A DNA stretch of 64,000 nucleotides from Dehalococcoidia bacterium (lineage in GTDB: Bacteria; Chloroflexota; Dehalococcoidia; Plut-88900), in NCBI GenBank assembly GCA_963668115.1, contig OY764147.1:456345-520344 (forward strand), written 5' to 3'. The position numbers and the translations under genes were made by a program. Below, piece by piece: positions 2,437 to 41,758 of the stretch (its first letter is position 1; each line of letters starts with the position of its first letter). The notes beneath the pieces were generated by a model. That model was not told the origin of the DNA, made no database searches, and worked only from the letters and a program-made list of their open reading frames with translations.

Positions 2437-5157
2437 TTATCTGAGTTCTGCGAGGCGGTGGAGGAGGTTGGACTCTTCTTCCTGCCAGCTGGAGAGGCGG
2501 GAGCGTTCTTTTTCTACGACGTTGGGAGGGGCCTTGGAGAGGAACTGTTCGTTGGAGAGTCGGGACTGGACCTGACCTATGCGTTTGCGCAGGTCTTCCA
2601 GGGAAGATTCCAGGCGCTGGCGCTCTCCGGCGAAGTCGAAGAGGCCGGTGAGGGGTAGGAAGATGCGGGTGGCCTTTTCGACGACCATGACGGAGTTTTC
2701 GGGTTGGGGGGCGTCGGCGGGACGGGCCTCGACGGAGCATAGGGCGAGATTTTCGAGGAAGGAGCGGCCACCGGGGCCGAGGGTCTCGCAGTCCAGTAGG
2801 ACGGCGGGGACTTTCTTGCCGGCCTCGACTTTGCGCTCGGCGCGGACGTTACGGACGCCGCGGACGAGGGACATAAGGAGGTTGGCCCACTCCTCGGCCT
2901 CGGGGTCTATGGCGGAAGGGTCGGGGGTGGGGTAGGGGGCGATCATTATGGAGTCGGGGCGGCCTGGGGAGTCGGGGATGCGCCGGACGAGGCTTTGCCA
3001 GATTTCCTCGGTGATGAAGGGCATGAAGGGGTGGAGGAGTCGGAGGGAGGACTCCAGTACGTGGGCGAGGACCGGGGCGGGGGAGGGGGCGGAGGGGTCC
3101 CGGAGGCGGACCTTGGCGATTTCGATGTACCAGTCGCAGAACTCGTTCCAGATGAAGTCGTGGACGTACTCCTGGGCGTCACCGAGTCGGAAGGAGGTGA
3201 GGGCCCGGGTTACGTCTTCGATTGTGCGGTTGAGACGGCTGAGGATCCAGCGGTCTTCGATGGGGAGGGGATGGATTTCCGCCTTCGCGGGAATGACGGA
3301 AGGGGAGTTGGGGAGGGGGATGGATTCCGGCTCGGGGGCCGGAATGACGGTGTCAGATTGGTCGAGGATGGAGATGACGTAGCGGGAGGCGTTCCAGAGC
3401 TTGTTGGTGAAGTTGCGGCTGGCTCGGATTTTGGCCGGGCTGAGGCGGCTGTCGTTGCCGGGGGCGGTGCCGACGGTGAGGGCGAAACGGAGGGCGTCGG
3501 CGCCGTGTTCGTCGATGATGTCGAGAGGGTTGAGGACATTGCCCTTGACCTTGCTCATCTTTTCGCCGTGCTCGTCCTGGATGAGGCCGTGAAGGTAGAC
3601 GGTGTGGAAGGGGATGTCGTCCATGTTCTGGATGCCCATCATGATCATGCGGGCGACCCAGAAGAAGAGGATGTCATAGCCGGTCTCAAGGACGGAGCCG
3701 GGGTAGAAGTAGCGGAGGTCTTCGGTGTCGTCGGGCCAACCGAGGGTAGAGTGGGGCCATAGGCCGGAGCTGAACCAGGTATCAAGGACGTCGGGGTCCT
3801 GGCGGATGTTGGTGGAGGGGCAGGCTTCACAGGTGGTCGGGTCTTCAAGAGAGACGATCAGGTGGTCGCAGCCGTCGCAGTACCAGACGGGGATGCGGTG
3901 TCCCCACCAGAGCTGGCGGCTGATGCACCAGTCCCGGATGTTGTCCATCCAGTTGAGGTAGACCTTGGTGAAGCGGTCTGGGACTATGCGGATGCGGCCC
4001 TCGGTGACGGCCTTGGCGGCGGCGTCGGCCATGGGCCCGACCTTGACGAACCACTGCTTGCCGGCGAGGGGCTCGACGACGGTGTTGCAGCGCTGGCAGT
4101 GACCGACGGAGTGGGTGAGGGGCTCGGCTTTTTCGAGGAGGGTGTCGGCTTTGAGGTCTTCGAGGATCCGGGTGCGGCAGTCGGCGGCGGTCATGCCCTG
4201 GTATTGGGGGCCTGCAGCCTCGGTCATGGTGGACTGGGGGCCAATGACGGTGATCAGGGGCAAATCGTGGCGCTGGGCGATATCGAAGTCGTTGGGGTCG
4301 TGGGCGGGAGTTACCTTTACGGCGCCGGTTCCGAACTCGGTATCGACGGCGGAGTCGGCTACGACGGGGATGGGGCGGTTGAGTCGGGGTAGGGTAACGT
4401 TCTGGCCGATGAAGTCGGAGAAGCGTTCGTCGTCGGGGTTGACGGCGACCGCGGTGTCGCCGAGGAGGGTCTCGGGGCGTGTAGTGGCAACGGTGAGATG
4501 GCGGGTCGGGTCTAGGGAGTGGGGATAGCGGATGTAGTAGAGCCTGCTATCGACCTCCTGGTGGATGACTTCGAGGTCGGAGAGGGCGGTGGAGCAGCGG
4601 GGGCACCAGTTGATGATGCGCTCGCCGCGGTAGATGAGGCCCTCGTTGTAGAGGTTTACGAAGGTGGTGCGGACGGCGCGGCTGGGGCCCTCGTCCAGGG
4701 TGAAGCGTTCCCGGGACCAGTCACAGGAGGCGCCGAGTCGCTTGTGCTGCTCGGCGATGGTGCGTCCGTACTGATGGACCCACTCCCAGACTCTTCCGAC
4801 GAAGGCGTCGCGGCCGATTTCCTGCCTGGTCTTGCCTTCCTTGACTAGCTGGCGTTCGACGACGACCTGGGTGGCGATGCCTGCGTGGTCGGAGCCCGGG
4901 AGCCAGAGGGTGGGGTCGCCCATCATGCGATGCCAGCGGATGAGGGCGTCCTCGGCGGCGGCGGTGAGGGCGTGGCCGAGGTGAAGCTCGCCGGTGACGT
5001 TGGGCGGGGGCATGATGATGACGAAGGGCTGCTTACCCTCCTGGATGCGGGGTTGGAAGTAGCCGTTGTCCATCCAGGATTTGTAGATGCGGCCTTCGAC
5101 CTCGGAGGGGTTGTAGACCTTGGGGATGCGGGCGAGGTTTTCAGTGCGCGTGGTCAT
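2437..5157 (-). CDS. valS: valine--tRNA ligase
   Basis: 906 aa with class-I HIGH-type motif (PPPNVTGELHLGHA) and KMSKS, plus a C-terminal coiled coil. Confidence 0.95.
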   Translation of the reverse strand: MTTRTENLARIPKVYNPSEVEGRIYKSWMDNGYFQPRIQEGKQPFVIIMPPPNVTGELHLGHALTAAAEDALIRWHRMMGDPTLWLPGSDHAGIATQVVVERQLVKEGKTRQEIGRDAFVGRVWEWVHQYGRTIAEQHKRLGASCDWSRERFTLDEGPSRAVRTTFVNLYNEGLIYRGERIINWCPRCSTALSDLEVIHQEVDSRLYYIRYPHSLDPTRHLTVATTRPETLLGDTAVAVNPDDERFSDFIGQNVTLPRLNRPIPVVADSAVDTEFGTGAVKVTPAHDPNDFDIAQRHDLPLITVIGPQSTMTEAAGPQYQGMTAADCRTRILEDLKADTLLEKAEPLTHSVGHCQRCNTVVEPLAGKQWFVKVGPMADAAAKAVTEGRIRIVPDRFTKVYLNWMDNIRDWCISRQLWWGHRIPVWYCDGCDHLIVSLEDPTTCEACPSTNIRQDPDVLDTWFSSGLWPHSTLGWPDDTEDLRYFYPGSVLETGYDILFFWVARMIMMGIQNMDDIPFHTVYLHGLIQDEHGEKMSKVKGNVLNPLDIIDEHGADALRFALTVGTAPGNDSRLSPAKIRASRNFTNKLWNASRYVISILDQSDTVIPAPEPESIPLPNSPSVIPAKAEIHPLPIEDRWILSRLNRTIEDVTRALTSFRLGDAQEYVHDFIWNEFCDWYIEIAKVRLRDPSAPSPAPVLAHVLESSLRLLHPFMPFITEEIWQSLVRRIPDSPGRPDSIMIAPYPTPDPSAIDPEAEEWANLLMSLVRGVRNVRAERKVEAGKKVPAVLLDCETLGPGGRSFLENLALCSVEARPADAPQPENSVMVVEKATRIFLPLTGLFDFAGERQRLESSLEDLRKRIGQVQSRLSNEQFLSKAPPNVVEKERSRLSSWQEEESNLLHRLAELR

Positions 5158-10298: not shown

Positions 10299-10331
10299 GC
10301 TTATGCTCCCGAGAATGAGAAACGGATGGCT

Positions 10332-25392: not shown

Positions 25393-25404
25393 GAAGAGAA
25401 GTAG

Positions 25405-25445
25405 AAACGGCGGCCTGCGCACCCCGCAGGCCGCCGTTTCGCGTA
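25405..25445 (+). terminator. Rho-independent terminator of glnA
   Basis: Perfect 15-bp stem AAACGGCGGCCTGCG-caccc-CGCAGGCCGCCGTTT followed by T-rich sequence. Confidence 0.75.
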
Positions 25446-25463
25446 AAACAGGGAGGACTAAAG

Positions 25464-26240: not shown

Positions 26241-26332
26241 GGGCACCCGCTTAGTTGTAGCGGGACATGGCTGAGTCCAGTCCTGAGGTTAGGATGCAGG
26301 CTATGGCGTCGGATACGGTGGCAACTGCGCTG

Positions 26333-26884
26333 TCAATAGTCTCCTGTTCTTCGTTGGAGAAGGGGCCGAGTACACGGGCGATGCCCGAGTACACGGGCGA
26401 TGGCGCCGGTCCGGCCGGTGGGGTCTCTGCCGATGCCTACCCTGATGCGGGGTATTTCCTCGGTGCCGAGGGCGCGGATAATGGACTTGATGCCGTTGTG
26501 GCCTCCGGCGCTGCCCTTGATGCGAATGCGGACCACGCCGAGTGGCAGGTCCATGTCGTCGTAGATGATGAGGAGTTTATCCTCCGGGACATGCCAGCGG
26601 GAGGTGATGTAGTGGATGGCCTCGCCGCTGAGGTTCATGAAGGTGCGGGGCTTGCCGAGGAGGACTCGATGGGCTTTCCCTTCAATGTTTACCCGACCCT
26701 CGGCCCATTTGAGCGGGCCACGTCGGCCGTCCCATTTCAAGCCGTGGTCGGCGGCGAACTTGTCTGCGCATTCGAAGCCGACGTTATGCCGGGTGCCGAC
26801 GTACTCGGGGCCGGGATTGCCGAGGCCGACTACGACGAGGTCAAAGGGGTTGGAGGTCCACTGTTTTCTCTTGAAGGGCCACAT
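26333..26884 (-). CDS. pth: Peptidyl-tRNA hydrolase with a frameshifted C-terminus (19-bp tandem duplication)
   Basis: GLGNPG, HN(V)G and GGHNGIKS motifs. The reading frame derails at a direct duplication at 26365-26402. Removing one copy restores a canonical C-terminus ending ..AMSRYN* at 26251. Confidence 0.85.
   Translation of the reverse strand: MWPFKRKQWTSNPFDLVVVGLGNPGPEYVGTRHNVGFECADKFAADHGLKWDGRRGPLKWAEGRVNIEGKAHRVLLGKPRTFMNLSGEAIHYITSRWHVPEDKLLIIYDDMDLPLGVVRIRIKGSAGGHNGIKSIIRALGTEEIPRIRVGIGRDPTGRTGAIARVLGHRPCTRPLLQRRTGDY
26365..26402. repeat. 19-bp perfect tandem duplication (NCCGAGTACACGGGCGATG x2) inside pth
   Basis: Read directly. 19 nt is not a multiple of 3, so it causes a +1 frameshift. 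Confidence 0.9.
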
Positions 26885-28945
<2,061 letters not shown>

Positions 28946-30055
28946 CTAGTTGCTTGAACCCTTGAACCCGAGGCGTTGAAGGACTTCACGCAGGGTGTCG
29001 ATTACTACGTCGATGTCGTCCTCTGTGACGTGGCCGAGGTGGCCGATGCGGAAGACCTTGCCTGCAAGGGGCCCCGGGCCTCCGGCGAGGACAACTCCGT
29101 ATTCTTCGCGGCAGATCTTGAGGAGTTGGGCCAGGTCTACACCATCGGGGGCGTTGATTGCGGTGACGGTGTTGGAGGCGAACTCTTCCTCAGCGAGTAG
29201 GGAGAGGCCGAGGGAGCGAGCGCCGTCCCTGGCGCGTCGGGCGACGGAGGCGTGGCGTTCGAAGACGTTGGCGAGGCCCTCCCGGGCGATGGCCTCGAGG
29301 CCGACGTCCAGGGCGTAGAAGGTGGAAACGGCTGGGGTCCAGGGGGTCTGGCCTCGCTCAAAGTAAGACTGGAGCTGGCCGAAGTCCCAGTGGAACCGGG
29401 GCATGGTTGAGGACTTCCATGCGTCCCAGGCACGCTGGCTGACGCTGATCATGGAGAGGCCGGGCGGGGACATCCATCCCTTCTGGGAGGCGGTGGAAAC
29501 TACGTCGCATTCCCAGGCGTCGACGGGGAGGTCAATGGAGCCGATGCTGCTAATGGCGTCTACCAGGAGGAGCCTATCGTGGGAGCGGGTGATATCGGCG
29601 ATGGAGCGGAGAGGGTTTGTCACGCCGGTGGAAGTCTCGTTATGGGTTACCAGGACGGCTTTAATAGAAGGGTCGTCGGCAAGGTGTTTGTCCACGTCAT
29701 CCGGGTTGATGGCCTTGCCGTAGGGGGCTTCCAGCTTTACTACGTCCGCGCCGAAGGCGTCGGCGATCTGGCAGTAGCGCTGTCCGAAAGAGCCGATGGT
29801 GAGGGCCAGGACTCGGTCTCCGGGTGAGAGGGTGTTTACCACGGATGCTTCCATAGCCCCGGTGCCGGAGCTTGTCATAACGTACAGGTCGTTCTCGGTC
29901 TGGAAGAACTCCTTGAGGCGGACGGTGACGCGCTCCAGGATGTCCTTGAATGCCGGGCCGCGGTGGTTGATCATCTGCGCGGTCATGGCGTCCAGGACTT
30001 CGTCGGGGACGGGGGTGGGGCCGGGTATACGGAGGTGGATTTTCTTGTCAGACAT
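28946..30055 (-). CDS. Class-V aminotransferase (serine-pyruvate/alanine-glyoxylate type)
   Basis: 369-aa PLP fold-type I, AGT-like (…SSGTGAMEA…SQKGWMSPPG…). Confidence 0.8.
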   Translation of the reverse strand: MSDKKIHLRIPGPTPVPDEVLDAMTAQMINHRGPAFKDILERVTVRLKEFFQTENDLYVMTSSGTGAMEASVVNTLSPGDRVLALTIGSFGQRYCQIADAFGADVVKLEAPYGKAINPDDVDKHLADDPSIKAVLVTHNETSTGVTNPLRSIADITRSHDRLLLVDAISSIGSIDLPVDAWECDVVSTASQKGWMSPPGLSMISVSQRAWDAWKSSTMPRFHWDFGQLQSYFERGQTPWTPAVSTFYALDVGLEAIAREGLANVFERHASVARRARDGARSLGLSLLAEEEFASNTVTAINAPDGVDLAQLLKICREEYGVVLAGGPGPLAGKVFRIGHLGHVTEDDIDVVIDTLREVLQRLGFKGSSN

Positions 30056-30105
30056 GGTTTGTGCTCAAATAGATTTTAGCTGATAAAGGGAAGAGGAAAA
30101 GGGCG

Positions 30106-31314
30106 TTATTTGTCCACAAAGACAAGAGTGCGGCGCTTGCCGACTTTCATGCGGGCGCCGGGCACGAGCCTGGACCGGTCAACGGCGTATTCGGAGAGTT
30201 TAGTGCCTTCCAGTTCGACGCCGCCGCCGTCTATGAGGCGTCGGGCTTCGCCGGAGGAAGAAGAGGCCTTGAATTCGACGAGGAGCCTGGGGATGAAGGT
30301 GGTGTCTTCGGCGTTGAGGGAAGCCAGGGGAATCTCGGTGACGATATCGTCGGCTTCTTTGCGCTGGACGATGCGCTCGAACTCGGTCTCGGCGGCGGAG
30401 GCGGCCTGGGGGGAGTGGAACTGAGCGACGATCTCCCGGGCGAGGCGTTTTTTGAGTTCAAGGGGGTTTATGGTGCGGGAGGCGAGGGCCTGGGTCATTT
30501 CGGAGATGTCGGGGTCGGGGAGGTTGGTGACGAGTTCGAGGTAGTTGGGGATCAGGTCGTCGTTGAGGCGCATGACCTTGAAGTAGGTGTCCTTCGGGGG
30601 TTCGGCGACGCCGATGTAGTTGTCGAGGCTCTTGCTCATGCGCTGGACGCCGTCGGTGCCGACGAGGATGGGAACGAGGAGACATTGCTGGGGCTTCTGG
30701 CCCACCATGCCCTGGAGCTCGCGCCCGAGGAGCAGGTTGAACTTCTGGTCGGTGCCGCCGAACTCTACGTCTGCTTCGATCACTGTCGAGTCGTAGGCCT
30801 GGAGGAGGGGGTAGAGAAGCTCGGTGATGGCGATGGGCCGGTTGGCCTTGAAGCGGTTGGAGAAGTCCTCCCGGGCAAGGATCTGGGCGACGGTGAAGCG
30901 GCTGGTGAGGGATATGACCTCGGTGAGGGTGAAATTGCCGAACCAGTCGCTCTGCCATCGGACCTCGGTGCGGTCCTTGTCGACGACTTTGAAGAACTGC
31001 TCCATGTAGGTGCGGGCGTTCTCCTGGACCTGCTCGGCGGAGAGCATCTGCCGGGTGGCGGACTGGCCGCTGGGGTCGCCGATCTGGGCGGTCCAGTCGC
31101 CGACGATGAGGATGACCCGGTGACCGAGCTCCTGGAACTGGCGCAGCTTTCGCAGGCCCACGGTGTGTCCGAGGTGGATGTCGGCGCGGGAGGGGTCGAA
31201 GCCCATCTTGAGGCGGAGGGGCCGGCCAGAATCCAGAAGGTCTTCGAGCTCCTGCTGCCGGATGACCTCGGCGACGCCGCGGGTGAAAAGGTGAGCGTAT
31301 TTTTGATTGGTCAT
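30106..31314 (-). CDS. tyrS: Tyrosine--tRNA ligase
   Basis: HLGH and KMSKS motifs plus a C-terminal S4-like domain. 402 aa. Confidence 0.95.
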   Translation of the reverse strand: MTNQKYAHLFTRGVAEVIRQQELEDLLDSGRPLRLKMGFDPSRADIHLGHTVGLRKLRQFQELGHRVILIVGDWTAQIGDPSGQSATRQMLSAEQVQENARTYMEQFFKVVDKDRTEVRWQSDWFGNFTLTEVISLTSRFTVAQILAREDFSNRFKANRPIAITELLYPLLQAYDSTVIEADVEFGGTDQKFNLLLGRELQGMVGQKPQQCLLVPILVGTDGVQRMSKSLDNYIGVAEPPKDTYFKVMRLNDDLIPNYLELVTNLPDPDISEMTQALASRTINPLELKKRLAREIVAQFHSPQAASAAETEFERIVQRKEADDIVTEIPLASLNAEDTTFIPRLLVEFKASSSSGEARRLIDGGGVELEGTKLSEYAVDRSRLVPGARMKVGKRRTLVFVDK

Positions 31315-32237
31315 CGGCTGGGGCTCGCGGCGAGGACTTTGCGGGCTACTTTCACATCGTTGGTCATCTGCTCTATCAGCTCCGGGACGCCGGAAAAGCG
31401 CATATCGCTGCGGACTAAGGCGAGGAAGTCTACGGTGAGGTGCCGGCCGTAGATGTCTTCGTCGAAGTCGAAGATGAAGACCTCCGTGGCGCGGGTCTCG
31501 CCTTCGAAAGTGGGTTTACTTCCTACGTAGGTTATGGAGTCGAGGCACCGGTTGTCCAGAAGGGCGCGGGTGGCGTAGATGCCGTCGGCGAGGAGGGCGC
31601 GGTCGGGTGGGACTTCGATGTTGGCGGTGGGGAAGCCGAGGAGGCGGCCACGCTTGTCACCTACGATGACGGGCCCCGATAGGCGGAAGGGCCGGGACAT
31701 GAGTTGCATTGCAAGCTCGACGTTGCCGGTGGAGAGGGCTTCGCGGATGGCGGTGCTGCTGACGGTGAGGTCGCCTTCGCGGATTACGTCCTGGCAGACG
31801 ACTTCGTAGCCGTATTCGGTTCCGAGTCGAGTCAGGGTGGGCACGTCTCCCTCGCGGCCTTTGCCGAGGGCGAAGTCCTGGCCGCAGACGAGGGCTTTCA
31901 TGTTCAGCTTCGAGGAGAGATGTTGGACGAACTCCGAGGCGCTGAGTTGGGACACTTCACGGGTGAAGTTTATGGCTACGACGTGGTCGATGCCGACGGC
32001 CTTGATGGCTTCGAGGCGGGAGTCCAGGTCCATGAGGTAGCGGGGCCGGAAGGCCGGGGCGAGGACGGTGAGGGGGTGATTGCGGAAGGTGACGACGGCG
32101 GAGTCCAGGCCGCGACGGTTGGCTTCTTCGATGGTGCGCCGGAAGAGGGTGCGGTGGCCGAGGTGGACGCCGTCGAACACGCCGATGGCTACGGCGGTGC
32201 GGGTGTCGGGCGGGGGGCCGGCGAGCTCTTCCAGCAA
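31311..32237 (-). CDS. ribF: Bifunctional riboflavin kinase/FAD synthetase
   Basis: N-terminal GVFDGVHLGH FAD-synthetase motif and C-terminal riboflavin kinase (…GFPTANI…). Overlaps the tyrS start by 4 nt. Confidence 0.9.
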   Translation of the reverse strand: MLEELAGPPPDTRTAVAIGVFDGVHLGHRTLFRRTIEEANRRGLDSAVVTFRNHPLTVLAPAFRPRYLMDLDSRLEAIKAVGIDHVVAINFTREVSQLSASEFVQHLSSKLNMKALVCGQDFALGKGREGDVPTLTRLGTEYGYEVVCQDVIREGDLTVSSTAIREALSTGNVELAMQLMSRPFRLSGPVIVGDKRGRLLGFPTANIEVPPDRALLADGIYATRALLDNRCLDSITYVGSKPTFEGETRATEVFIFDFDEDIYGRHLTVDFLALVRSDMRFSGVPELIEQMTNDVKVARKVLAASPSR

Positions 32238-33008
32238 GGGGTGGACCTATATCCGAGTGCGACCCCTACCAGGCGATAGGGGTCACCGGTGGGGATGGTA
32301 GCACAGGGAGTGGGACAAGTCTACCAGGGGGGCCGGTTCGGGTGGGTCGGCGACCCGGCGGGTTATCCGGTCCTCCTGGGGGCGGCTATTCGGTTGTGGG
32401 GTTTCGTTTTCGGGTTTTCTGTTTTGGAGGGGTCGGCGATGGGAGACGCCCAGTGGGACAAGGCCCCTGTTCCTGTCGGAGCAGTTTTTCGGGCGCCCAG
32501 GGTCGGGCGCAGGTTCAAGCGCCTGCCACGGGGCCCGGAGTGTCAATGGCTATGACAGCCAAGGCGCTCCCAGGGTGAGGGGAAAAGGGACAAAACGTGA
32601 TGTTATGGAACAGGACGGGACAAAGATGGGATCCAGGGCGTCTATCCATCGCCTAGATGGTCAGGGAAGGGCCACGGGCGCCCCGATGGTGAGGGGACAA
32701 CGTCCCTGTCCGCCTGAGGCGGATGTACCAGCTTGTGCCTAGGGCCTGCGCGTGGGCCTTTGGGATGGGCTGGGGCGTTGAGTCCTCGGGGTCGGGTCTC
32801 GGGGACTTCCCTGGGTTTCTGGTTCCTCCTTGTGTTACTGAATTAGTGTTCGCGAACGCAGGGTATGATAACGCCTTTGCTCAGGTGTGTCAAGCAAATG
32901 TACGTGTATTGGGGGATACGCGAGGGGTTGGCCGGCGTGGGCCGCCCCCCGCCCCAGGGTACCCACGAGGGGCACCCCTACGGGGGAGGGGACACCCCAC
33001 CGCGCCCC

Positions 33009-33095
33009 GCGGGATGGATTTACGCCAATGGCGCATCTTCGACCCGATCGGGGCCGGAATGACGGCAAGGGATGGGTGGGGATGATGGGGGGGTG
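33009..33095. repeat. Intergenic repeat copy R3 (module A with internal palindromic insertion plus module B GGGGATGATGGGGGGG)
   Basis: GGGATGGATT…CGGGGCCGGAATGACGG…GGGGATGATGGGGGGG. Direct orientation relative to R4. Contains CGCCAATGGCG palindrome. Confidence 0.55.
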
Positions 33096-33236
33096 TCTGA
33101 ACTGTGATGCATGGGATTGAGGGATTGGTTTGATTTGTTGGGAGTGGTGGGGGTGGGTTGACGGTTAATCTAAACTTGGCGGTACGCCGGAGGTGCATCA
33201 AGGACATTTACGACCCTCCAAAGGCGGGTCTTTGAC

Positions 33237-34697
33237 ATGGCTGAAGCGAATTTTGTGGACAAGACGATCTGGACGGGGGACAACCTCGATATTTTGAGGG
33301 GGTTGAACTCCGATTGCGTGGACATGATATATCTCGATCCGCCGTTCAATTCCAACCGGAACTACGCTGCTCCGGTCGGGTCACGGGCGGCGGGGGCGGC
33401 GTTCAAGGATACGTGGACGCTGTCCGACCTGGACACGGCATGGATGGGGTTGATTGCGGACGAACAGCCGGCGATGTACAAGGTGATAGAGACGGCGGGG
33501 CTGACGCACGGAAAGGGGATGCAGTCTTACCTGTGCATGATGGCGGTGCGGCTGGTTGAGATGCGGCGGGTGCTGAGGGACACAGGGTCAATATATCTGC
33601 ACTGTGACCCGACGGCATCGCACTATCTGAAGATGCTGATGGACTCGATATTTGGAGCGGGACTATTCAAGGCAGAGATCAATTGGCAAAGGACATCCGC
33701 TCATAGTGACTCGCGCACCTTTGGTAATGTGAGTGACAAGCTTTTGTTTTACAGTGCGACCTCCATAAATGCAGATGCAATTCGTACTCCCTTAAATCCT
33801 GATTACGTAAAAAGTCACTACCGATATACCGATAAACGTGGGCGCTATCAAGACGATAATTTGACTGGCCCTAGCCACGGGTCTCCACCTGGCAGTCCTG
33901 GTACACAACCTTGGCGTGAGTACGATCCGACTTCTATCAACCGCATTTGGTCGGTTCCAAAAACAGGAAGATACGCCACCTGGATTGACCACAACATCAT
34001 TCCGGGATATCTGAAAATGGAGAGCATATTTGATCGCTTAGATGCTTTGGAGCAAGCCGACATGCTCATCCATACTGAAAGAGGTCTCGTACCACGACTT
34101 AAACGGTATTCGCAGGCTAGTCTTGGTCAAGTTCCTAGCAACAACTGGACTGACATTTCCCCAATCAACTCCCAAGCTAAAGAGCGCACAGGCTATCCCA
34201 CCCAAAAGCCCCTTGCCCTGTTAGAGCGGATTATCTCGGCGTCTTCCAATCCGAGCGATGTGGTGCTGGACCCGTTTTGCGGGTGCGCAACAGCCTGTGT
34301 GGCGGCGGAGAAACTGGGAAGGAAATGGGTGGGGATAGACATTTCGCCAAAGGCCGTCGAATTGGTGAATATGCGGTTGCGGAAGTTCATGGGGGACTTG
34401 TTCCACGAACGGTTGGTGACGGCCCGGACAGACATACCGCGTCGGACGGACATATTGGTCCCGATTCCGTATCGGAAGCAGAAGCACGTACTGTTTGGTC
34501 GGCAGGAGGGGAGGTGTGCGGGGTGCAAGTATGAGTTCCCGTTCAGGATTTTAGAGGTGGACCACGTGATACCGAGGAGTAGGGGAGGGTCGGACCACCT
34601 GGACAATTTGCAACTGCTGTGTCCTAACTGCAATCGGATCAAAGGTGATAGGGAGATGTCGTACCTGATGGCTCGGTTGAAGGAGAGGGTGGGGTAG
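33237..34697 (+). CDS. Beta-class N6-adenine/N4-cytosine DNA methyltransferase fused to a C-terminal HNH endonuclease domain
   Basis: Motif IV DPPF near the N-terminus, motif I (VLDPFCGCATACVAAEKLG) near residue 370, then CxxC…HVIPRSRGGSDHLDNLQLLCPNCN HNH. The central part (~33650-34200) is markedly AT-richer. Confidence 0.85.
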   Translation: MAEANFVDKTIWTGDNLDILRGLNSDCVDMIYLDPPFNSNRNYAAPVGSRAAGAAFKDTWTLSDLDTAWMGLIADEQPAMYKVIETAGLTHGKGMQSYLCMMAVRLVEMRRVLRDTGSIYLHCDPTASHYLKMLMDSIFGAGLFKAEINWQRTSAHSDSRTFGNVSDKLLFYSATSINADAIRTPLNPDYVKSHYRYTDKRGRYQDDNLTGPSHGSPPGSPGTQPWREYDPTSINRIWSVPKTGRYATWIDHNIIPGYLKMESIFDRLDALEQADMLIHTERGLVPRLKRYSQASLGQVPSNNWTDISPINSQAKERTGYPTQKPLALLERIISASSNPSDVVLDPFCGCATACVAAEKLGRKWVGIDISPKAVELVNMRLRKFMGDLFHERLVTARTDIPRRTDILVPIPYRKQKHVLFGRQEGRCAGCKYEFPFRILEVDHVIPRSRGGSDHLDNLQLLCPNCNRIKGDREMSYLMARLKERVG

Positions 34698-34707
34698 GGG
34701 GAGGAGG

Positions 34708-35715
34708 TTACGAGCCTGGACCTTCACCTATACGGGCGATAATCCTGTTCTTCAATTCACTACGCAGGTCCTCTGGGGTATCCCAAACGATGTGTGCATA
34801 TTGGCGTGTGTCAAAGTGTAGCTTGTCTATCATGTCATTGCGGCAAGTGTATATGACTGGAATGCCTAGACCATGAGCAAAACCCGCCTCAAAATAAACT
34901 CCACCTCTAGCACCGCCTTCCCCGTGGGTAAAGTCAGCAACCAAAAATCGGGAGCGTCGAATTTCAGCAATTATTTCATCATCAATCTTGTCTATGTCCG
35001 GCTTCTGGTCAATTCTAAGTGGATTATATCCTGCGTCCTTAATGGCTAGTCTGACACCATTGTCAAATGCCTCGTCCATACTGTCATCAAGCCACATGGC
35101 AACAAAGGCTTGAGCAGAATCCAGATTTATCTTTTGCTCTGCAATGCGGCGGTACCCGGATACCGTGAGCCCGCCATGGAACAACCCATTCACAAGCCTC
35201 TGTCCCCGTATCCATCTCATCTCCTCCAAATAGTCGAGCAAATATACGACCTCACCCCATTCAACCGATTCTGACCACGCAAACGCTCCATAGGATTCCT
35301 GCTGAATCTCTACAACAGTTGCTATTGTTGTTGCGTGTCTTTCGATGAATCGAAGGAGTCTATCGGCACGTTGCTCAACTGGTATGGGAGGCTCCTTTCT
35401 AGCTTGTTCTACGAGCTGCGTATCGACAAGTGGCCATCTTACTCCTTGTTCTAGTTGATCAAGAATGATAGTAGTTATCTTCGCTCTTAGTTTCCCGTTA
35501 ACGGTACTGCCTTTGAGATCAAATTCTGCCCCAACAGCAACTGCGTAAGGCCCTCCAACGCGAGGGGAGTCCTCGATAAGTGTCCGACGTCTCCGGAAGT
35601 CGTATGAAACTGTGGCTTGAAAGTCTGGCCATATCTGACATTGGTCTTGCGGCACTTTAAACCTCGTTATTGCTTCTCTCAGAAATCTTGAGCTATCTGC
35701 AGCTTGACCTTTCAA
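34708..35715 (-). CDS. Two-domain protein: unknown N-terminal domain plus C-terminal nucleoside 2-deoxyribosyltransferase/TIR-like (flavodoxin-fold) domain; candidate defence effector
   Basis: The C-terminal ~130 aa (AFVAMWLDD…FLVADFT…GVYFEAGFAHGLGIPVIY) resembles the NDT/TIR-like catalytic-Glu motif. Low GC. Convergent with the MTase-HNH gene. TTG start. Confidence 0.45.
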   Translation of the reverse strand: MKGQAADSSRFLREAITRFKVPQDQCQIWPDFQATVSYDFRRRRTLIEDSPRVGGPYAVAVGAEFDLKGSTVNGKLRAKITTIILDQLEQGVRWPLVDTQLVEQARKEPPIPVEQRADRLLRFIERHATTIATVVEIQQESYGAFAWSESVEWGEVVYLLDYLEEMRWIRGQRLVNGLFHGGLTVSGYRRIAEQKINLDSAQAFVAMWLDDSMDEAFDNGVRLAIKDAGYNPLRIDQKPDIDKIDDEIIAEIRRSRFLVADFTHGEGGARGGVYFEAGFAHGLGIPVIYTCRNDMIDKLHFDTRQYAHIVWDTPEDLRSELKNRIIARIGEGPGS

Positions 35716-35803
35716 ATGGTCACAACCTACATTAGTAAATTATATCCTCGAACTCTTGAGAACCTAAGCGTGGTTACATGTGGGCCAGCCCCGCCCCGTC
35801 ACC

Positions 35804-35880
35804 GGGGATGGATTCCCGACTACTCGGGAATGACGGAGTAACGGGAGTGGGGATGATGGGGGTGGGGGGTGGGGGGAGGT
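35804..35880. repeat. Intergenic repeat copy R4 (module A GGGGATGGATTCCCGACTACTCGGGAATGACGG plus module B GGGGATGATGGGGGTGG)
   Basis: Perfect stem ATTCCCGA/TCGGGAAT. Same orientation as R3, so together they bracket the low-GC cassette. Confidence 0.6.
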
Positions 35881-36039
35881 TGTTGGGGTAGGGGTGAGGG
35901 TTATTCTACGGTGTGTATGTTAGGATACGCGCAGGTTTGAGCCATAGCGGAGGCCAGAGATTACTACGACAACGCAGGCGGTGATTTCGGGGGAGGCGGG
36001 TGAGCCGACCCGGCGGGCTATCTGAAAACCCTCCAACAA

Positions 36040-36330
36040 GTGCACTCTCAGTTGGCCGAGGGTGAATTCGTCTTTTCTCGCCACGCCCTAATCCGAATGG
36101 CTGACAGGAACATTTCTGATCTGGAGATCAGGCAGGCCGGAAGACAGGCCACCGTTATAGAAGAGTATCCTGCCGACAAATACTCGCCAAGCTGTCTTCT
36201 CCTAGGGTTCACTGATGCCGGCAGACCGCTTCATATTCAAGTTTCTCTGGCCGATACAAAGAACGTGAGAATAGTTACACTCTATGAACCAAACCCCGAA
36301 GAATGGGTTGGGCTTTCCATGAGGAGGTAA
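36040..36330 (+). CDS. DUF4258-family putative toxin
   Basis: 96-aa ORF (…FSRHALIRMADRNIS…) of the DUF4258 type. Immediately followed by a zinc-ribbon antitoxin-like gene. Confidence 0.5.
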   Translation: MHSQLAEGEFVFSRHALIRMADRNISDLEIRQAGRQATVIEEYPADKYSPSCLLLGFTDAGRPLHIQVSLADTKNVRIVTLYEPNPEEWVGLSMRR

Positions 36331-36332
36331 AG

Positions 36333-36575
36333 ATGTCCGAATGCTCTGTGTGCAACGCCCGGGAAATCCGCGAAGAGCCGGTTGATGAGGTGTTCCACGT
36401 CGATGGGCGGTGGGTGTTGGTCGGGGGGATTCCGGCTTTGGTGTGCGGCAGGTGTGGGGAACAGTCATTCAGCCGGGAGGCCGCGGAGAAAGTCCGGCTG
36501 ATGGTGCACGGGGAAGCCAAGGCGACAACATCGGTTTCGATGCAGGTGTACGATTTTGCATCATCAGCGTCGTGA
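36333..36575 (+). CDS. YgiT/MqsA-type zinc-ribbon protein (putative antitoxin)
   Basis: MSECSVCNAREIREE…LVCGRCGEQSFS has the CxxC…CxxC YgiT-type zinc finger. ATG 36333 after GAGGAGG. Overlaps the toxin stop. Confidence 0.55.
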   Translation: MSECSVCNAREIREEPVDEVFHVDGRWVLVGGIPALVCGRCGEQSFSREAAEKVRLMVHGEAKATTSVSMQVYDFASSAS

Positions 36576-36632
36576 CGCGTATGGCGCCGAATGGCACAAC
36601 AGCACACTTCGAGAATTGAGGGGAGTAGAAGT

Positions 36633-37961
36633 ATGTCGCAGTTGAGGGTTGTACATTACCTGAACCAGTTTTTTGCGGGGATCGGCGGGGAGGATAAGGC
36701 GGATACGGCCCCGGGGTCGGAGGGCCGACCGCTGGGGCCGGGGAATGCCCTTAATCAGGCGCTGACTTCTTCGGAGGAAGGGGAGGTGGTGGCGACGGTG
36801 TATTGCGGGGACACGTATTTCACCGAGAACCAGGAGGAAGCGCTGGGCCGGATCGTGGAGCTGGTGCGGGAGTCGGGGGCGGAGGTGCTGGTGGCGGGGC
36901 CGGCGTTTGGGTCGGGTCGGTACGGGCTGGCGTGCGCGCAGGTGTGCCAGAGGGTCGGGTCTGCGCTGGGGATTCCGGTTGTTACGGGGATGCACCCTGC
37001 AAACCCGGGGGCGGAGCAGTACAGGGGACAGGTGTACATGGCTTCGACTTCGGATACGGCAGTGGGGATGGGGGCGGCGATCGAGGTGATGGCTAAGCTG
37101 GCAGTGAAGCTGGGTCGGGGGGAGGAGCTGGGGCCTGCGGACGAGGACGGGTATATTCCGACGGGTCGGGTGAAGACGCAGGTACACGAGAAGACGATGG
37201 CGCAGAGGCTTGTCGACATGGTGCTGAAGAAGGTGAACGGAGAGCCCTTCGAGACGGAATGGCCGCTGCCTTCGATGGAGAAGATAGAACCGGCACCGGC
37301 GATAGGGTCGGTGGCCGGGGCGAGGATAGCGCTGGTGACGGAGGGGGGAGTGGTGCCTCGGGGGAACCCGGACAAGATCCCGAGCGGTTGGGCGAAGCAC
37401 TGGGCGCGTTATGACATCGGCGAGGTGTCGGACTTCACCCCCGATAAGTGGCAATCCGTACACGGCGGCTTCGACACCACCAAGCTGAATGAAGATCCCG
37501 ACAGGGTCCTTCCCCTCGATGTGATGCGGGAACTGGAGGAGGAGAAGGCCATAGGCAAGATCCACGAGTACATGTATTCCACCGTAGGGAATATTGGCTA
37601 CGTGGCGGACATGAAGCGGTTCGGAGAGGACATAGCGGCGGAACTGCAGGCGGCGGGGGTGCAGGGGGTGATCCTGACGGGGACCTGAGGCACGGGCACG
37701 CGTAGCGGGGCTACGCTGGCGAAGGAGCTGGAGAGGGCAGGGCTGCCGACGGCATTTATCACGGCGATGGTGCCACTGGCGCAGAGCATCGGGGCGAACC
37801 GGATTGTGCAGGGGAAAGCGGTGACGACGACGACGGGTGATCCTGCGCTGCCGCCGGATGAGGAGAAGGCCTTCAGGCGTCGGCTGGTGGAACGGGCGCT
37901 AAAGTCGCTGGAGTCGACACCCGAGGGGCAGGAGGTGGTGTGGGGGGAGGACCGGGGCTAG
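36633..37961 (+). CDS. GrdB-family (glycine/sarcosine/betaine reductase protein B-like) selenoprotein with in-frame UGA (Sec) at 37686-37688
   Basis: N-terminus MSQLRVVHYLNQFFAGIGGEDKAD. The ORF track splits it at TGA (..VILTGT*GTGTRSGATLAKELE..). The downstream frame continues with GLPTAFITAMVPLAQSIGANRIV…GDPALPPDEEKAFRRRLVERAL, typical of the GrdB C-terminus. A hairpin GCGTAGC-ggg-GCTACGC lies 11 nt after the UGA. Confidence 0.6.
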
Positions 37962-39496
37962 ACGGCGACGCGCTCCAGGTCTTTCAGAATCGCCTTTGCG
38001 GCGTTGTGACCCGGAGCGCCTGTGATCTCGCCGCCGGGGTGGGTGCCTGAGCCGCACATGTAGAAGCGGTCGATGGTCGAGCGGTAGGGCATGCGGCCGG
38101 AGAATATCTGCTTACTGGTGATGTCTATGTGGCGGATGTTGCCGTCGGTGAGGAACTGACGGATTTCAATGTCCTCGGGGGTCTGGAGGGTCCAGTCGAC
38201 GATGGACTCACGGAAGTTGGGGGCGTAGGTTGTGAGGATGTCGATCAGCTTTTCTCCAACTTTCGGTCCCTCGACATCCCACGAACCTTCCTTGAGCTCG
38301 GCGGGAGCGTAGAGGGTCCACGCGGAGAGGACGTGATGGCCGGGTGGGGTCAACGACTTGTCGTAGATTGAGGGCATCTGGACGTTCATCACGGGGCAGC
38401 TGGATGGGTAGCCGTTCTTGGCGTCGTCCCAACTCTGCTGGAAGTACTCGACGGAGGGGCAGATGCGGAAGTAGGCGGTGAGCCGGGGGTCGTAGCCTTC
38501 GCCGAGGTAGCTGCTGAAGTCGGGGAGCTCACGGAGGGCGACGAGGAGCTTGACGCAGTTGGCACGGGTGGTGAGGCCGTCGACCTTGGACCTGGTGGCG
38601 GGGTCGACGTCTGCGGAGTCGACGAGGTCATTGTAGGTGCGCTTGGGGTCGGCGTTGGAGACGACCATGAAGCTCCTGATCTCCTCGCCGTTTTCGAGTC
38701 GGACGCCGACGGCCGCGCCGTTCTCGACGATCAACTTGTCGACGACGGTGTTGAGTCGGATCTCGACGCCGAGGGACTCGGCGTAGCGGGCCATGGAGAA
38801 GGGGAGCTGGCTCATGCCGCCGCGGGGGATGCCGTAGTTCTCGGGCTTGGTGAAGGCGTTGACCCGGAGGTAGGCGAGGCTGAGGATGCTGCCGGGGGCG
38901 CTCGGGTCACCGGCGTCCTGGGCGTCGATGAAGTGGGCCTTGACCTGGGGGTGCTCGAAATGCTGGTCGACGAGGTCCCTCATGCTGACGGTGAGCATGG
39001 TCTCCCAAACTTCCTCGTCGCTGGTGCCTCGGACGTCCTGGTAGACCTCGGCGATGGTCGGGGGTTCGCGGAACCAGTACCTGTGGAGGATAGCGGAGGC
39101 CCGCTCCCAGAAGCTGGCCCACTCCGGGAAGGCCTGGGCGTCCTTTTCGGAGAAGCGGGCCAACTCCCGGGCGTTCTTGTGGTTTTCCCGGTAGGTCATG
39201 ATGTAGTTGCCGTCCGGGAAGGGGTCGAAGCGGAAGGTGGTGAAGGGGATGATGTCGAGGCCGTTGTCACGCAGCTTGAGGTCGTCGATGACCCGGCCCT
39301 GCATGATGTGGAGGATGTAGGCGCAGTACGGAATGTTGAAGCCGGGGGCGAGTTCGTCGGTCACCACGGCTCCGCCGACCATCTCAAGGCGCTCCAATAC
39401 GAGGACCTTCAGGCCCTCCTGGGCGAGGTAACCGGCGGTGACGAGGCCGTTGTGCCCGGCCCCGATGATGATGGCGTCGTACTGGTGCTGCTGCAT
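37958..39496 (-). CDS. Phytoene desaturase-family FAD-dependent oxidoreductase (CrtI-like)
   Basis: N-terminal YDAIIIGAGHNGLVTAGYLAQEGLKVLVLE dinucleotide-binding motif. 512 aa. Confidence 0.8.
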   Translation of the reverse strand: MQQHQYDAIIIGAGHNGLVTAGYLAQEGLKVLVLERLEMVGGAVVTDELAPGFNIPYCAYILHIMQGRVIDDLKLRDNGLDIIPFTTFRFDPFPDGNYIMTYRENHKNARELARFSEKDAQAFPEWASFWERASAILHRYWFREPPTIAEVYQDVRGTSDEEVWETMLTVSMRDLVDQHFEHPQVKAHFIDAQDAGDPSAPGSILSLAYLRVNAFTKPENYGIPRGGMSQLPFSMARYAESLGVEIRLNTVVDKLIVENGAAVGVRLENGEEIRSFMVVSNADPKRTYNDLVDSADVDPATRSKVDGLTTRANCVKLLVALRELPDFSSYLGEGYDPRLTAYFRICPSVEYFQQSWDDAKNGYPSSCPVMNVQMPSIYDKSLTPPGHHVLSAWTLYAPAELKEGSWDVEGPKVGEKLIDILTTYAPNFRESIVDWTLQTPEDIEIRQFLTDGNIRHIDITSKQIFSGRMPYRSTIDRFYMCGSGTHPGGEITGAPGHNAAKAILKDLERVAV

Positions 39497-39521: not shown

Positions 39522-40613
39522 CTAGTTGAACATGATGACGCTTCGGGCGATGTGGGCGTCCCGCATGTCCTCGAAGGCCTGGTTGATGTCCTCCAGCTGG
39601 ATACGCTTGGAGATGATCTCGTCGAGCTTCAGGCGGCCCTGGCGGTAGAGCTCCATGTACTGGGGCATGTCGACGCGGAAGTGGTTGGAGCCCATGTTGC
39701 TGCCCTGGAGTCGGCGGCCGTCCAGCAAGGCAGGCCCGTCAATCGTGACCTTCGTGCCCTGGGGGATCATGCCGATGACGGTTGCGGTGCCGCCCTTGTC
39801 GAGCATGTCATAGCACTGCTCGGCGGTTACGGCCTTGCCTATGGCTTCGAAGGAGTAGTCGACACCCAAGCCTCCAGTCAGCCCTTTTACCCTGTCGACA
39901 ACATCGCCCTTCGACGCGTCTATTACGTGGGTAGCGCCGACTCTCTGTGCGAATCCCAGCTTGTCTTCGACGGCGTCGATAGCGATGACCTTTGCGGCCC
40001 CGGCGATGAGAGCGCCGTTGATCGCGCTTAGTCCGACGCCGCCACAGCCGACAACTGCCACGGTACTGCCGGGCCTAACCCTGGCCGTTCTCATGGCGGC
40101 CCCGACGCCGGTGGTCACGCCGCAGCCGATGAGGGCCTGAACCTCGATAGGCACGTCCTCTTCGACTACGACCGCAGCGTTTTCATGGACGAGCATGTAC
40201 TCAGCGAAGGATGAGAGGTTCATGGCCTGGTGGATCACCTCGTCGTCCTTGTGCAGGCGAGGGGACTCGTCACGGCTTCTCTTCAGGCCTACGCCCCTGC
40301 AGTTCACCATCTCGCCCTGGATGCACTTGTCGCAGGTGCCGCAGAAGACGGAAAGGCAGGTTATGACACGGTCGCCGGGCTGATGGTAGGTGACCTGGGA
40401 GCCGACAGCGGCGACCGTTCCTGCTGCCTCGTGGCCGAGGATGGTCGGGAGGGGGCACTTGTAGAGGCCGTCGACGTAGTGGAGGTCGCTGTGGCAAACG
40501 CCGGATGCGCCGGTCTTAATGAGGATTTCTCGGGGGCCGGGTTCGCCGACGTCGACATCTTCAATGCTTACTTCCTCGTAGGGTGCTCTCATCACGGCTG
40601 CTTTCATCTTCAT
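39522..40613 (-). CDS. Zn-dependent alcohol dehydrogenase (MDR family)
   Basis: GVCHSDLH and GHEAAG motifs, structural Zn Cys cluster (CGTCDKC), GxGxxG. Confidence 0.85.
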   Translation of the reverse strand: MKMKAAVMRAPYEEVSIEDVDVGEPGPREILIKTGASGVCHSDLHYVDGLYKCPLPTILGHEAAGTVAAVGSQVTYHQPGDRVITCLSVFCGTCDKCIQGEMVNCRGVGLKRSRDESPRLHKDDEVIHQAMNLSSFAEYMLVHENAAVVVEEDVPIEVQALIGCGVTTGVGAAMRTARVRPGSTVAVVGCGGVGLSAINGALIAGAAKVIAIDAVEDKLGFAQRVGATHVIDASKGDVVDRVKGLTGGLGVDYSFEAIGKAVTAEQCYDMLDKGGTATVIGMIPQGTKVTIDGPALLDGRRLQGSNMGSNHFRVDMPQYMELYRQGRLKLDEIISKRIQLEDINQAFEDMRDAHIARSVIMFN

Positions 40614-40675: not shown

Positions 40676-41758
40676 TTAGTTGAAAGTCAATACGCTGCGG
40701 GCCACGTGGCCTTCCTTCATGTCATCGAAGGCCCTGTTCACGTCTTCAAGGGGCATTTGCTGGGAGATCATCTCCTTGAGCTTCAACCGACCCTGAAGGT
40801 AAAGCTCAATGTAGCGGGGCATGTCTATGCGGAACCGGTTGGAGCCCATGCTGCTGCCGCCGATCTTGCGTTCGCTGAGGAGGGATGGGCCGTCGATATG
40901 TATCTCGGTGCCCTCGGGGATCATGCCTATGACGGTGGCCGTTCCACCGGTGTCGAGCATGTAGTAGGCCTGCTCGGCGGTCTTCTTCAGGCCTATGGCT
41001 TCGAATGAGTAGTCGACGCCTCGGGGGGAAATGGCATGCACTTTTTCCACTGCATCCCCGGTAGAAGCATCCACGACGTCCGTTGCACCGAGTTCCCTTG
41101 CCAAACCGAGCTTCGTTTCTACGGTGTCGATGGCTATGATCTTCTCCGCGCCTGCCAGGACTGCTCCCTGCAATGCGCTGAGCCCGATGCCACCCAGTCC
41201 AAGGACTGCCACAGTGCTGCCCGGGGCCACCTTTGCAGTGTTCAGCGCTGCCCCGACTCCGGTCGTGACCGCGCAGCCGATCAATGCCACCTCTTCAAGG
41301 GGCACGTCCTCACGGATCTTGCAGGTGGCGTTTTCGTGGACGAGCATGTATTCGGCAAAGGTGGAGAGATAGGAGAACTGGTGAATTCTGTCGCCGTTCT
41401 GTCTGAGTCGAGGTGGTGCGCTAGGAGAGCGCTCCATGCCCTTGCGTCGGCAGAGATGGGGGTTCCCGCTAAGGCATTTGTCGCACATGCCGCAGAAGAC
41501 GGACAGGCACGTAATGACGTGGTCGCCCGGTTTGACGTAGTCCACCATAGACCCCACGGCCTCGATGACGCCTGCGGCCTCGTCACCCAGGATGGTTGGC
41601 ATGGGGAAGGAGTATTTGCCCTCCATATAGTGGAGATTGCTGTGGCAGACACCGGAGGCCACGGTACGGATCACCACCTCGTTGGGGCCCGGGTCGTCGA
41701 TCTGGACGTCCTCGATGGTCAGGGGGGCGTCGACTTCGCGCAGTACGGCTGCTCGCAT
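40676..41758 (-). CDS. Zn-dependent alcohol dehydrogenase (tandem paralog)
   Basis: Same motifs (GVCHSNLH, GDEAAG, CGMCDKC). About 55-60% identical to the neighbour. Confidence 0.85.
   Translation of the reverse strand: MRAAVLREVDAPLTIEDVQIDDPGPNEVVIRTVASGVCHSNLHYMEGKYSFPMPTILGDEAAGVIEAVGSMVDYVKPGDHVITCLSVFCGMCDKCLSGNPHLCRRKGMERSPSAPPRLRQNGDRIHQFSYLSTFAEYMLVHENATCKIREDVPLEEVALIGCAVTTGVGAALNTAKVAPGSTVAVLGLGGIGLSALQGAVLAGAEKIIAIDTVETKLGLARELGATDVVDASTGDAVEKVHAISPRGVDYSFEAIGLKKTAEQAYYMLDTGGTATVIGMIPEGTEIHIDGPSLLSERKIGGSSMGSNRFRIDMPRYIELYLQGRLKLKEMISQQMPLEDVNRAFDDMKEGHVARSVLTFN

Follow-up and report, generated by a model that had tools for sequence, protein, structure and literature searches.

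The intergenic slot between ribF and grdB in a 64-kb stretch of DNA from a Dehalococcoidia bacterium (contig OY764147.1; the whole stretch is termed the window, and all positions are counted within it) is probably a variable defence hotspot. It holds a stand-alone DNA methyltransferase fused to an HNH nuclease (MTase-HNH), an abortive-infection (Abi)-type effector protein with a winged helix and a nucleoside 2-deoxyribosyltransferase (NDT)-like domain, whose family lodges in restriction-modification (R-M) loci, and a toxin-antitoxin (TA) pair. A first-pass annotation made from the sequence alone had proposed a horizontally acquired defence-type cassette and a comparison with syntenic relatives. 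The proposal is supported, as the region is variable, compositionally foreign and defence-type, and the comparison, now made, shows three different gene contents in the ribF/grdB slot of three related genomes.

The open reading frame (ORF) listing places the two main genes at 33237..34697 (+ strand, 486 aa) and 34708..35715 (- strand, 335 aa), with stop codons 10 bp apart, and the convergent pair of the first-pass annotation is thus borne out, although its region measures about 2.9 kb and not 2.5 kb. To the left of the pair, across a 1-kb gap, lies ribF, followed by tyrS and an aminotransferase gene, and to the right are a small overlapping gene pair and then a GRDB-family gene (grdB). The predicted drop in GC below a background of about 60% is also found. 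The mean GC of the window is 0.602, and the minimum 1-kb GC in the 64 kb, starting at 34751, is 0.470, about 4 standard deviations under the mean. The NDT-like gene has a GC of 0.476 and a GC at third codon positions (GC3) of 0.42, and the MTase-HNH gene has a GC of 0.535; neighbouring housekeeping genes have a GC of 0.63-0.64 and a GC3 of 0.80-0.90.

Gene content of the slot in related genomes

Related loci fetched for comparison carry L-numbers as labels. Locus L083 is syntenic with the window, with 80.7% nt identity over 6.2 kb of ribF-tyrS-aminotransferase-ligA. Here the NDT-like gene is in place and the methylase gene is absent. The L083 allele of the NDT-like gene has a synonymous divergence (dS) of 1.26, against 0.59-0.67 in flanking genes, and is thus twice as diverged, which suggests allele replacement rather than simple vertical descent. 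The ratio of nonsynonymous to synonymous divergence (dN/dS) between the NDT-like gene and its relatives is 0.12-0.23, close to that of tyrS and ribF, and the gene is therefore under purifying selection. A 49-bp segment of the window at 35964..36012 has 92% identity to L083 positions 7091-7139, which lie inside an ADH_N gene; this gene, adjacent to the NDT-like gene of L083, encodes a zinc alcohol dehydrogenase, and its 5′ part is what the segment matches. The segment is a remnant left by rearrangement and shows that the NDT-like segment came from, or in the past had, an L083-like arrangement.

Locus L167 represents a closer strain and is collinear with window positions 25313-34703 and 36619-38582. 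Its methylase is 98.6% identical at the aa level. However, an unrelated low-GC gene of 381 aa stands in place of the NDT-like gene, the flanking repeat termed R4 (see below) and the TA pair, and the homology breaks in the 10-bp gap between both stop codons. The 381-aa gene (L167 positions 9515-10660, GC 0.453) occupies the slot of the NDT-like gene. Its product has no Pfam and no PADLOC match, and the possibility that it shares the sensor domain of the NDT-like protein was ruled out, as BLASTP found no similarity. It is a candidate alternative defence cassette.

The dS of MTase-HNH to its L167 counterpart is 0.03, compared with 0.24 for tyrS. A recent independent transfer of MTase-HNH was considered on this basis, but the idea is softened by the flanking genes, which are a mosaic of 83-100% identical patches. 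Between window positions 30000 and 33000, identity with L167 flips between 83% and 100% in patches of 100-200 bp over tyrS and ribF. Patchy identity of this kind indicates frequent homologous recombination within the population.

The TA pair reported just beyond the convergent genes is confirmed at 36040-36575. The toxin gene (36040..36330, + strand) matches Pfam DUF4258 (1.2e-20, 74 bits against a cut-off of 25). The antitoxin gene (36303..36575, + strand) encodes a YgiT/MqsA-type zinc finger, with a match to TIGR03831 (3e-8, 33.8 bits against a cut-off of 20.2) and a match to MqsA_antitoxin that is under the cut-off (1.1e-4). The two genes overlap by 28 nt, and as adjacent small genes of both families they form a Type II TA pair. 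The DUF4258 toxin gene is absent from L167 and L083.

The MTase-HNH gene

The 486-aa protein matches Pfam N6_N4_Mtase (5.5e-42) and HNH (1.6e-15), and PADLOC MTase_II (8e-56) and MTase_III (3e-35). Motif IV, DPPF (33336-33347, + strand), comes first, and the S-adenosylmethionine (AdoMet)-binding motif I, DPFCGCAT (34269-34292, + strand), follows after a long insert; the order DPPF ... FCGCAT is typical of beta-class enzymes. The C-terminal HNH nuclease domain (aa 427-472; 34515..34652, + strand) displays all of the CxxC ... DH ... N ... CxxCN residues. Thus the beta-class methyltransferase fused to HNH, as first annotated, is borne out. The DPPF motif, an FxGxG-like motif and the CxxC/DH/N/CxxCN residues of the HNH domain are invariant across relatives (alignment A2), and the fusion is kept in 120 of the 120 best homologs. 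The HNH domain resembles those of IscB and Cas9. The nearest solved structures are CcrM, MboIIA, RsrI and DpnA for the methyltransferase part, and McrA, Cas9 and a group II intron maturase for the HNH part. No solved structure or paper of the literature searched describes a beta-class MTase-HNH fusion.

The target-recognition region (TRD; about aa 146-300; 33672..34136, + strand) is a mosaic low-GC insert, with a GC3 of 0.42, against 0.72-0.77 in the N- and C-terminal parts of the gene. In the copy from L086 this region is non-homologous and shorter, while the remainder of the gene is 83-91% identical at the nt level. At the sequence level, the composition of the TRD and its swap in L086 are the pattern expected of R-M specificity diversification, and not of a housekeeping orphan methylase.

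Methyltransferase and nuclease lie in one ORF with catalytic motifs intact, as in a single-chain R-M enzyme. MTase-HNH is in this respect similar to Type IIC/IIG-like enzymes, which also combine both functions in one chain and have a variable, shuffled recognition region. Characterised Type IIG/IIL enzymes have a PD-(D/E)XK nuclease and a gamma-class N6_Mtase. MTase-HNH differs from these in its beta-class N6_N4 methyltransferase and C-terminal HNH domain, for which DNA cleavage, and with it restriction, is predicted. It is most likely a single-polypeptide R-M-like enzyme, or at least a mobile methylase. No separate restriction endonuclease gene adjoins the methylase, the adjacent genes being only the NDT-like gene and the TA pair. 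The original suggestion that an effector acts instead of a restriction endonuclease is not supported, since the methylase has its own intact HNH domain and the two genes are separable.

Neither gene has a second paralog within the window. Across 80 related loci, no conserved partner of MTase-HNH was found apart from IS1595 transposases. In 12-13 of the 80 metagenome loci (L088, L093, L099, L105, L113, L151, L153, L164, L165 and others) an IS1595/ISXO2-like transposase gene is present directly upstream of MTase-HNH and is mostly co-oriented. This recurrence suggests that MTase-HNH travels as a passenger of insertion sequences.

The NDT-like protein

The ORF of the NDT-like gene extends over 335 codons, but the true start is probably the GTG at 35655, because homologs begin about 20 residues downstream of the ORF start and a GAGG Shine-Dalgarno-like motif precedes the GTG. 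The probable coding sequence is therefore 34708-35655 (- strand, 315 aa). Residue numbers below are those of the ORF. The N-terminal sensor-type domain (aa 24-198; 35122..35646, - strand) consists of a beta-hairpin/helical part and a winged helix (about aa 135-185), and matches no Pfam family. The C-terminal domain (34726..35121, - strand) is the putative effector.

The first-pass annotation had described a catalytic domain similar to both NDT and TIR. An NDT-type flavodoxin-like alpha/beta fold is indeed found in the C-terminal domain; however, the match to the NDT family PF05014 is under its cut-off and there is no Pfam TIR match, with PADLOC giving only a weak match to a generic 'Effector TIR' profile. 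The catalytic-motif region is presumably nearer to NDT, Rcl and MilB than to TIR. No variation is seen among 28 homologs at residues D245, D261 and E276, which lie inside the stretch matched by PF05014 positions 47-98; E276 is within ...ARGGVYFEAGFAHGLGIPVI... and its codon is at 34888-34890 (- strand). The protein has no NCBIfam match. A precomputed PF05014 match is present in a few homologs, and some homologs on plasmids are named 'nucleoside 2-deoxyribosyltransferase' by PGAP.

The family is without a name of its own and counts over 6,400 homologs with a length of about 320 aa. These are mostly from metagenome-assembled genomes of Dehalococcoidia/Chloroflexota, and are also found in Latescibacterota, Spirochaetia and Opitutales and on plasmids of Bacillus and Bradyrhizobium. 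The protein also matches phrog_16139 (5e-46), a family of unknown function. At odds with this hit, a tblastn search of 50,697 GenBank phage genomes gave no match, and the members of phrog_16139 may come from prophages or divergent phages.

To characterise the sensor-type domain, the N-terminal 175 residues were searched against 1.84 billion cluster representatives. There were 469 matches; the best 150 were examined, and 149 were readable. An NDT-like C-terminus is present in 80 of these 149, and most of the others are short proteins, possibly truncated or consisting of the N-terminal domain only. Six full-length proteins carry other effectors: TIR_2 in four, a CAP12/Pycsar-type TIR in one and Abi_C (AbiJ-type HEPN) in one. 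In PADLOC, the versions that bear TIR or HEPN are assigned to AbiJ and to two single-gene candidates, PDC-S66 and PDC-S35; the generic 'Effector TIR' profile is the sole match of the NDT-like version. One N-terminal domain with interchangeable toxins is a hallmark of abortive-infection-type proteins, and the NDT-like protein looks like a self-contained sensor-effector. Fusions of NDT and TIR domains to Abi (AbiJ-like) N-terminal domains have been described previously (PMC3710099).

Association of the NDT-like family with R-M loci

Neighbouring genes were clustered in the first 83 NDT-like loci. In about 14-19 of these, e.g., L015, the NDT-like gene is found right after hsdS and before hsdR of a Type I operon, with intergenic gaps of tens of bases. 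The commonest gene order is hsdM, a HEPN/MNT pair, hsdS, the NDT-like gene, sometimes PDC-M02B and an 8xMP membrane protein gene, and hsdR. Genes for PDC-M02B (1.7e-104) and the octameric membrane protein 8xMP are often co-embedded (L013, 9456-10592; L021, 5719-6222; and similar loci). Since these are embedded together with the NDT-like gene, several accessory genes are stacked between hsdS and hsdR.

Immediate neighbours were scanned in 60 loci, two for each, i.e., 120 proteins. These include Methylase_S (13), N6_Mtase (4), N6_N4_Mtase (3), Eco57I (3), HSDR_N (2) and Type_ISP_C (2), and further SIR2_2 (3), AAA_21 (2) and Schlafen (2). The 111 control genes, taken from the same loci at distances of more than 5 kb, include one N6_Mtase and one N6_N4_Mtase, and Methylase_S is not among the 25 families listed. 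By a conservative count, R-M genes represent about 22 of the 120 immediate neighbours and 2 of the 111 controls (Fisher p = 1.7e-5). Because the neighbours span several R-M types, the association is with R-M in general and not with MTase-HNH in particular.

The two genes as a pair

The same convergent pair is found in L086, with 8 bp between the stop codons, flanked by arginase and amidohydrolase genes. Homology spans window positions 33234-35873, R4 included, at 83-91% nt identity except for the central recognition region of the methylase. Tandem pairs are present among metabolic genes in L002 (methylase 72% and NDT-like protein 57% identical) and L055 (43% and 47%). MTase-HNH is a neighbour in only 4 of 86 NDT-like loci, however. 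Of 80 metagenome methylase loci, 54 are HNH-positive, and 27 have at least 1.5 kb on both flanks; an NDT-like gene is found in none of these 27 well-flanked MTase-HNH loci, and it is absent also from L167, L168 and L169. Thus the pair recurs and moves together, as in L086, L002 and L055, and each gene is mostly found alone, as seen in L083, L167 and the counts above. A recurrent yet facultative pairing would follow from the habit of the NDT-like family to lodge at R-M loci.

The two genes could also form an obligate two-gene system, in which MTase-HNH would mark self and recognise sequence, and the NDT/TIR-like protein would be a dedicated effector that fires on unmethylated or foreign DNA. 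The convergent layout, with its 8-10 bp between stops, moving as a unit in the window and L086, the recurrence of the pairing in two other gene orders, the isolated position of the two genes among metabolic genes every time, and the enrichment of the NDT-like family beside methylases generally are all consistent with such a system. It is nevertheless unlikely. In L083 the NDT-like gene is under purifying selection without the methylase, and in L167 the methylase has a different neighbour; the partner is missing from all 27 well-flanked MTase-HNH loci; most NDT-like loci lack the methylase, and plasmid copies are solitary; and the NDT-like protein itself contains a sensor domain, to which different effectors can be joined. 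Functional coupling of the two genes, taken more broadly, is possible, though doubtful.

Proposed mechanism and points against it

In the proposed mechanism the slot would contain three modules. MTase-HNH would be the first, a stand-alone methylase-nuclease with TRD shuffling and single-chain R-M-like action. The second would be the NDT-like protein, as a single-protein sensor-effector of the abortive-infection type. Its winged-helix-containing N-terminal domain would sense a trigger, either nucleic acid or an infection cue, and sensing would release the C-terminal NDT/TIR-like N-glycosidase. This in turn would destroy an essential nucleotide-type metabolite, NAD+ or (deoxy)nucleotides, and halt the infected cell. 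The DUF4258/YgiT TA pair would be the third module. The NDT-like family would settle within R-M loci or next to them to provide a second line of defence, like PrrC and other embedded genes.

A more specific role is put forward tentatively. The winged-helix and NDT-like family may be a dedicated guard of R-M, which senses the DNA methylation state or the integrity of the R-M complex. Phage evasion by anti-restriction proteins or phage methylases, or loss of the methylase, would then lead the N-glycosidase to kill or arrest the cell, and the pair in the window would be a minimal mobile two-layer immune island, in which MTase-HNH, as a single-chain restriction enzyme of the beta class, would form the first layer.

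Several points weigh against the defence reading of the slot and should also be considered. The HNH domain could serve mobility or nicking instead of restriction. The PF05014 match reaches 20.8 bits against a gathering cut-off of 28.8 bits (E 4.5e-4) and covers residues 239-292 only, and searches with the single sequence, with a profile and with the isolated C-terminal domain found no PDB sequence match to the NDT-like protein. Residues E276, D245 and D261 are taken by us to correspond to NDT Glu98, Asp72 and Asp92 from motif resemblance, not from superposition. Genes of the related loci were called crudely, as longest ORFs. In addition, the pair is found in four contexts and three gene orders, always as a two-gene island among metabolic genes, and such recurring islands could reflect real functional coupling rather than a shared niche.

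Comparison with known systems

The NDT-like effector of retron Ec86 depletes nucleoside derivatives; the retron is triggered by a phage DNA methylase and, it has been proposed, backs up R-M as a second defence (bioRxiv 10.1101/2023.08.16.553469). By analogy with retron Ec86 (Retron-Eco1), an NDT-like N-glycosidase domain would be the toxic arm of the protein described here. Unlike the retron, the locus has no reverse transcriptase among the called neighbours and no Rfam match, and the NDT-like domain is located C-terminal to a winged-helix sensor domain in one polypeptide. The AbiJ, PDC-S35 and PDC-S66 proteins display the same modular logic of an N-terminal sensor and a C-terminal toxin. The NDT-like version differs in that it matches none of those PADLOC families and in that its N-terminal domain has no Pfam family. 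The locus also differs from Thoeris, as no ThsA-like gene is present among the flanking genes (ribF, the TA pair and grdB) and PADLOC made no ThsB call. An N-glycosidase activity on a nucleotide-type substrate, a trigger and an anti-phage phenotype are predicted for the NDT-like protein.

The embedding of defence genes in R-M, BREX and Hma loci is an established discovery principle, 'guilt by embedding', and genes embedded in R-M loci are typically complementary defences (bioRxiv 10.1101/2024.01.29.577857; PMC11411939). Many relatives of the NDT-like gene share with PrrC and TgvAB (V. cholerae VPI-2) the R-M-embedded position between hsdS and hsdR. The effector chemistry sets them apart, PrrC being an anticodon nuclease and TgvAB a GmrSD-like Type IV enzyme. 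In the window, unlike the habit of PrrC and TgvAB, the R-M partner is a single MTase-HNH gene and not a Type I operon. The NDT-like and MTase-HNH families are both uncharacterised; nothing in them is categorically new, and the R-M embedding signal is strong.

The position between hsdS and hsdR, together with the winged-helix fold that adjoins the catalytic domain, also raises the question of whether DNA is the target of the NDT-like protein. In that case the winged helix would recognise (un)methylated sites and the NDT-like domain would remove bases or swap them, as a 'restriction glycosylase' or a base-modifying R-M accessory. Type IV enzymes are known to use winged-helix domains to sense methylation (PMC11037411; PMC12707154), and Anantharaman et al. 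proposed DNA as the target of Abi-linked NDT domains (PMC3710099). However, both TIR effectors and the characterised NDT-like defence effector, that of retron Ec86, target small nucleotides. TIR and HEPN toxins, whose targets are not DNA bases, can replace the NDT-like domain in the effector position, and DNA-glycosylase structures are absent among the top fold matches. Action on DNA is thus quite unlikely, and a nucleotide-type metabolite is the preferred target.

The R3 and R4 repeats

The gene pair lies between two G-rich repeats that resemble repetitive extragenic palindromic (REP) elements, R3 (33009..33095, + strand) and R4 (35804..35880, + strand), the latter upstream of the NDT-like gene. 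Both have three modules, GGATGGATT, then a variable hairpin, GGAATGACGG and GGGATGATGGGGG, and the variable centre is long in R3. They are the sole three-module copies in the window; copies with one or two modules, each of them on the + strand, are found at 3267, 3315, 5249, 6481 and 9071. The fetched loci, which total 2.0 Mb and belong mostly to related Chloroflexota, contain 56 composite copies, and copies are also located between ordinary genes and inside long ORFs. The repeats that were first annotated as bracketing the pair in the same orientation are therefore present, but they belong to a dispersed, genome-wide intergenic REP-like family and are not the ends of a cassette. The claim that they form hairpins fared less well, as the hairpins predicted for R3 and R4 do not exceed shuffled sequence in stability (z 0.19 and -0.99).

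Could the repeats still be functional cassette boundaries, similar to miniature inverted-repeat transposable elements, attC or recombination sites, that mobilise the enclosed DNA? Repeats flank the NDT-like gene alone in L083, and the methylase together with the 381-aa gene in L167; R4 accompanies the pair in L086, and an R4-like copy is also present in L167. Against L167, divergence and indels peak at positions 32913-33136, which include R3, and a block of 98-100% identity starts at about 33137, to the right of R3. A low-GC PhyH-like gene elsewhere in the window (5354-6334) is likewise situated between modules, at 5249 and 6481. Because copies flank variable genes and the L167 identity block starts at R3, the repeats may favour recombination. 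A role as boundaries is nevertheless very unlikely, given that some copies separate ordinary genes or sit within long ORFs. The indel by which the methylase region differs from L083 falls not at the repeats but in the interval from the repeat to the NDT-like gene, and homology to L167 breaks at the stop codons. Cassette-specific att-like ends were thus ruled out, the family being dispersed and the L083 and L167 breakpoints not falling at both repeats.

The genes examined at 28.9-39.5 kb include neither an integrase nor a transposase. An integron was not recognised, with repeats dispersed among ordinary genes and no nearby integrase seen (attC core sites were not modelled). RNA genes were not found by Rfam, either in the whole window or in a sensitive search of 32100-36700, and a tRNA scan gave no tRNA.

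The PhyH-like gene (5354-6334, - strand; Pfam PhyH 7e-7) encodes a putative dioxygenase in a second low-GC stretch of the window (5249-6510, GC 0.51-0.54), and its flanking modules, at 5249-5286 and 6481-6510, are from the same repeat family. At 3267-3352, two tandem repeat cores are found inside an ORF of 906 aa (2437..5157, - strand); the ORF may not be real or may be split, or else a coding sequence contains the repeat. A similar repeat match is present inside a CoA-ligase ORF of L002 (5551-5623). Runs of 7-19 GGAATGACGG-like units are found in L055 (550-887, 5754-6102 and 14725-15148) and L002 (11873-11999), and these dense runs suggest tandem arrays of the same repeat core in related genomes.

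Other features of the region

An ordinary housekeeping role outside conflict, with one gene serving nucleotide salvage as a deoxyribosyltransferase and the other encoding an orphan regulatory methylase, would be in line with the PGAP label on plasmid homologs and the plain name 'DNA methyltransferase' given to the methylase in sources. Such a role is extremely unlikely in view of the differing presence and absence between close strains, the GC3 of 0.42 against 0.8-0.9 in host genes, the shuffled TRD and HNH fusion of the methylase, the sensor domain common to TIR and AbiJ effectors, and the embedding of the family in R-M operons.

Two further observations concern the surroundings of the pair. 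Upstream of ribF, at 32238-32893 on the - strand, there is a near-consensus promoter sequence, TTGACA-17 nt-TATCAT, at 32893-32865 (11 of 12 matches), followed by a leader of about 630 nt. Promoter and leader are conserved in L083 and L167 and have no Rfam match; the sequence could be an unannotated leader, a riboswitch or a small gene. A 300-nt direct repeat (39523-39822 and 40677-40976, 74% identity) corresponds to the adjacent paralogs 39522..40613 and 40676..41758 (- strand), a tandem duplication unrelated to the pair.

Significance

Candidate defence genes turn over in one intergenic slot among close strains. The widespread beta-class MTase-HNH fusion, with its shuffling TRDs, may be an unrecognised single-chain form of R-M and is a possible source of new specificities. 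For the NDT-like family, embedding in Type I, Type IIG/ISP-like and MTase-HNH loci provides a comparative-genomic signature, and a single sensor domain with an NDT-like, TIR or HEPN effector is an architecture offered for testing. If the proposed role is true, a large unnamed family, with thousands of members over diverse bacteria, would join the candidate anti-phage effectors.

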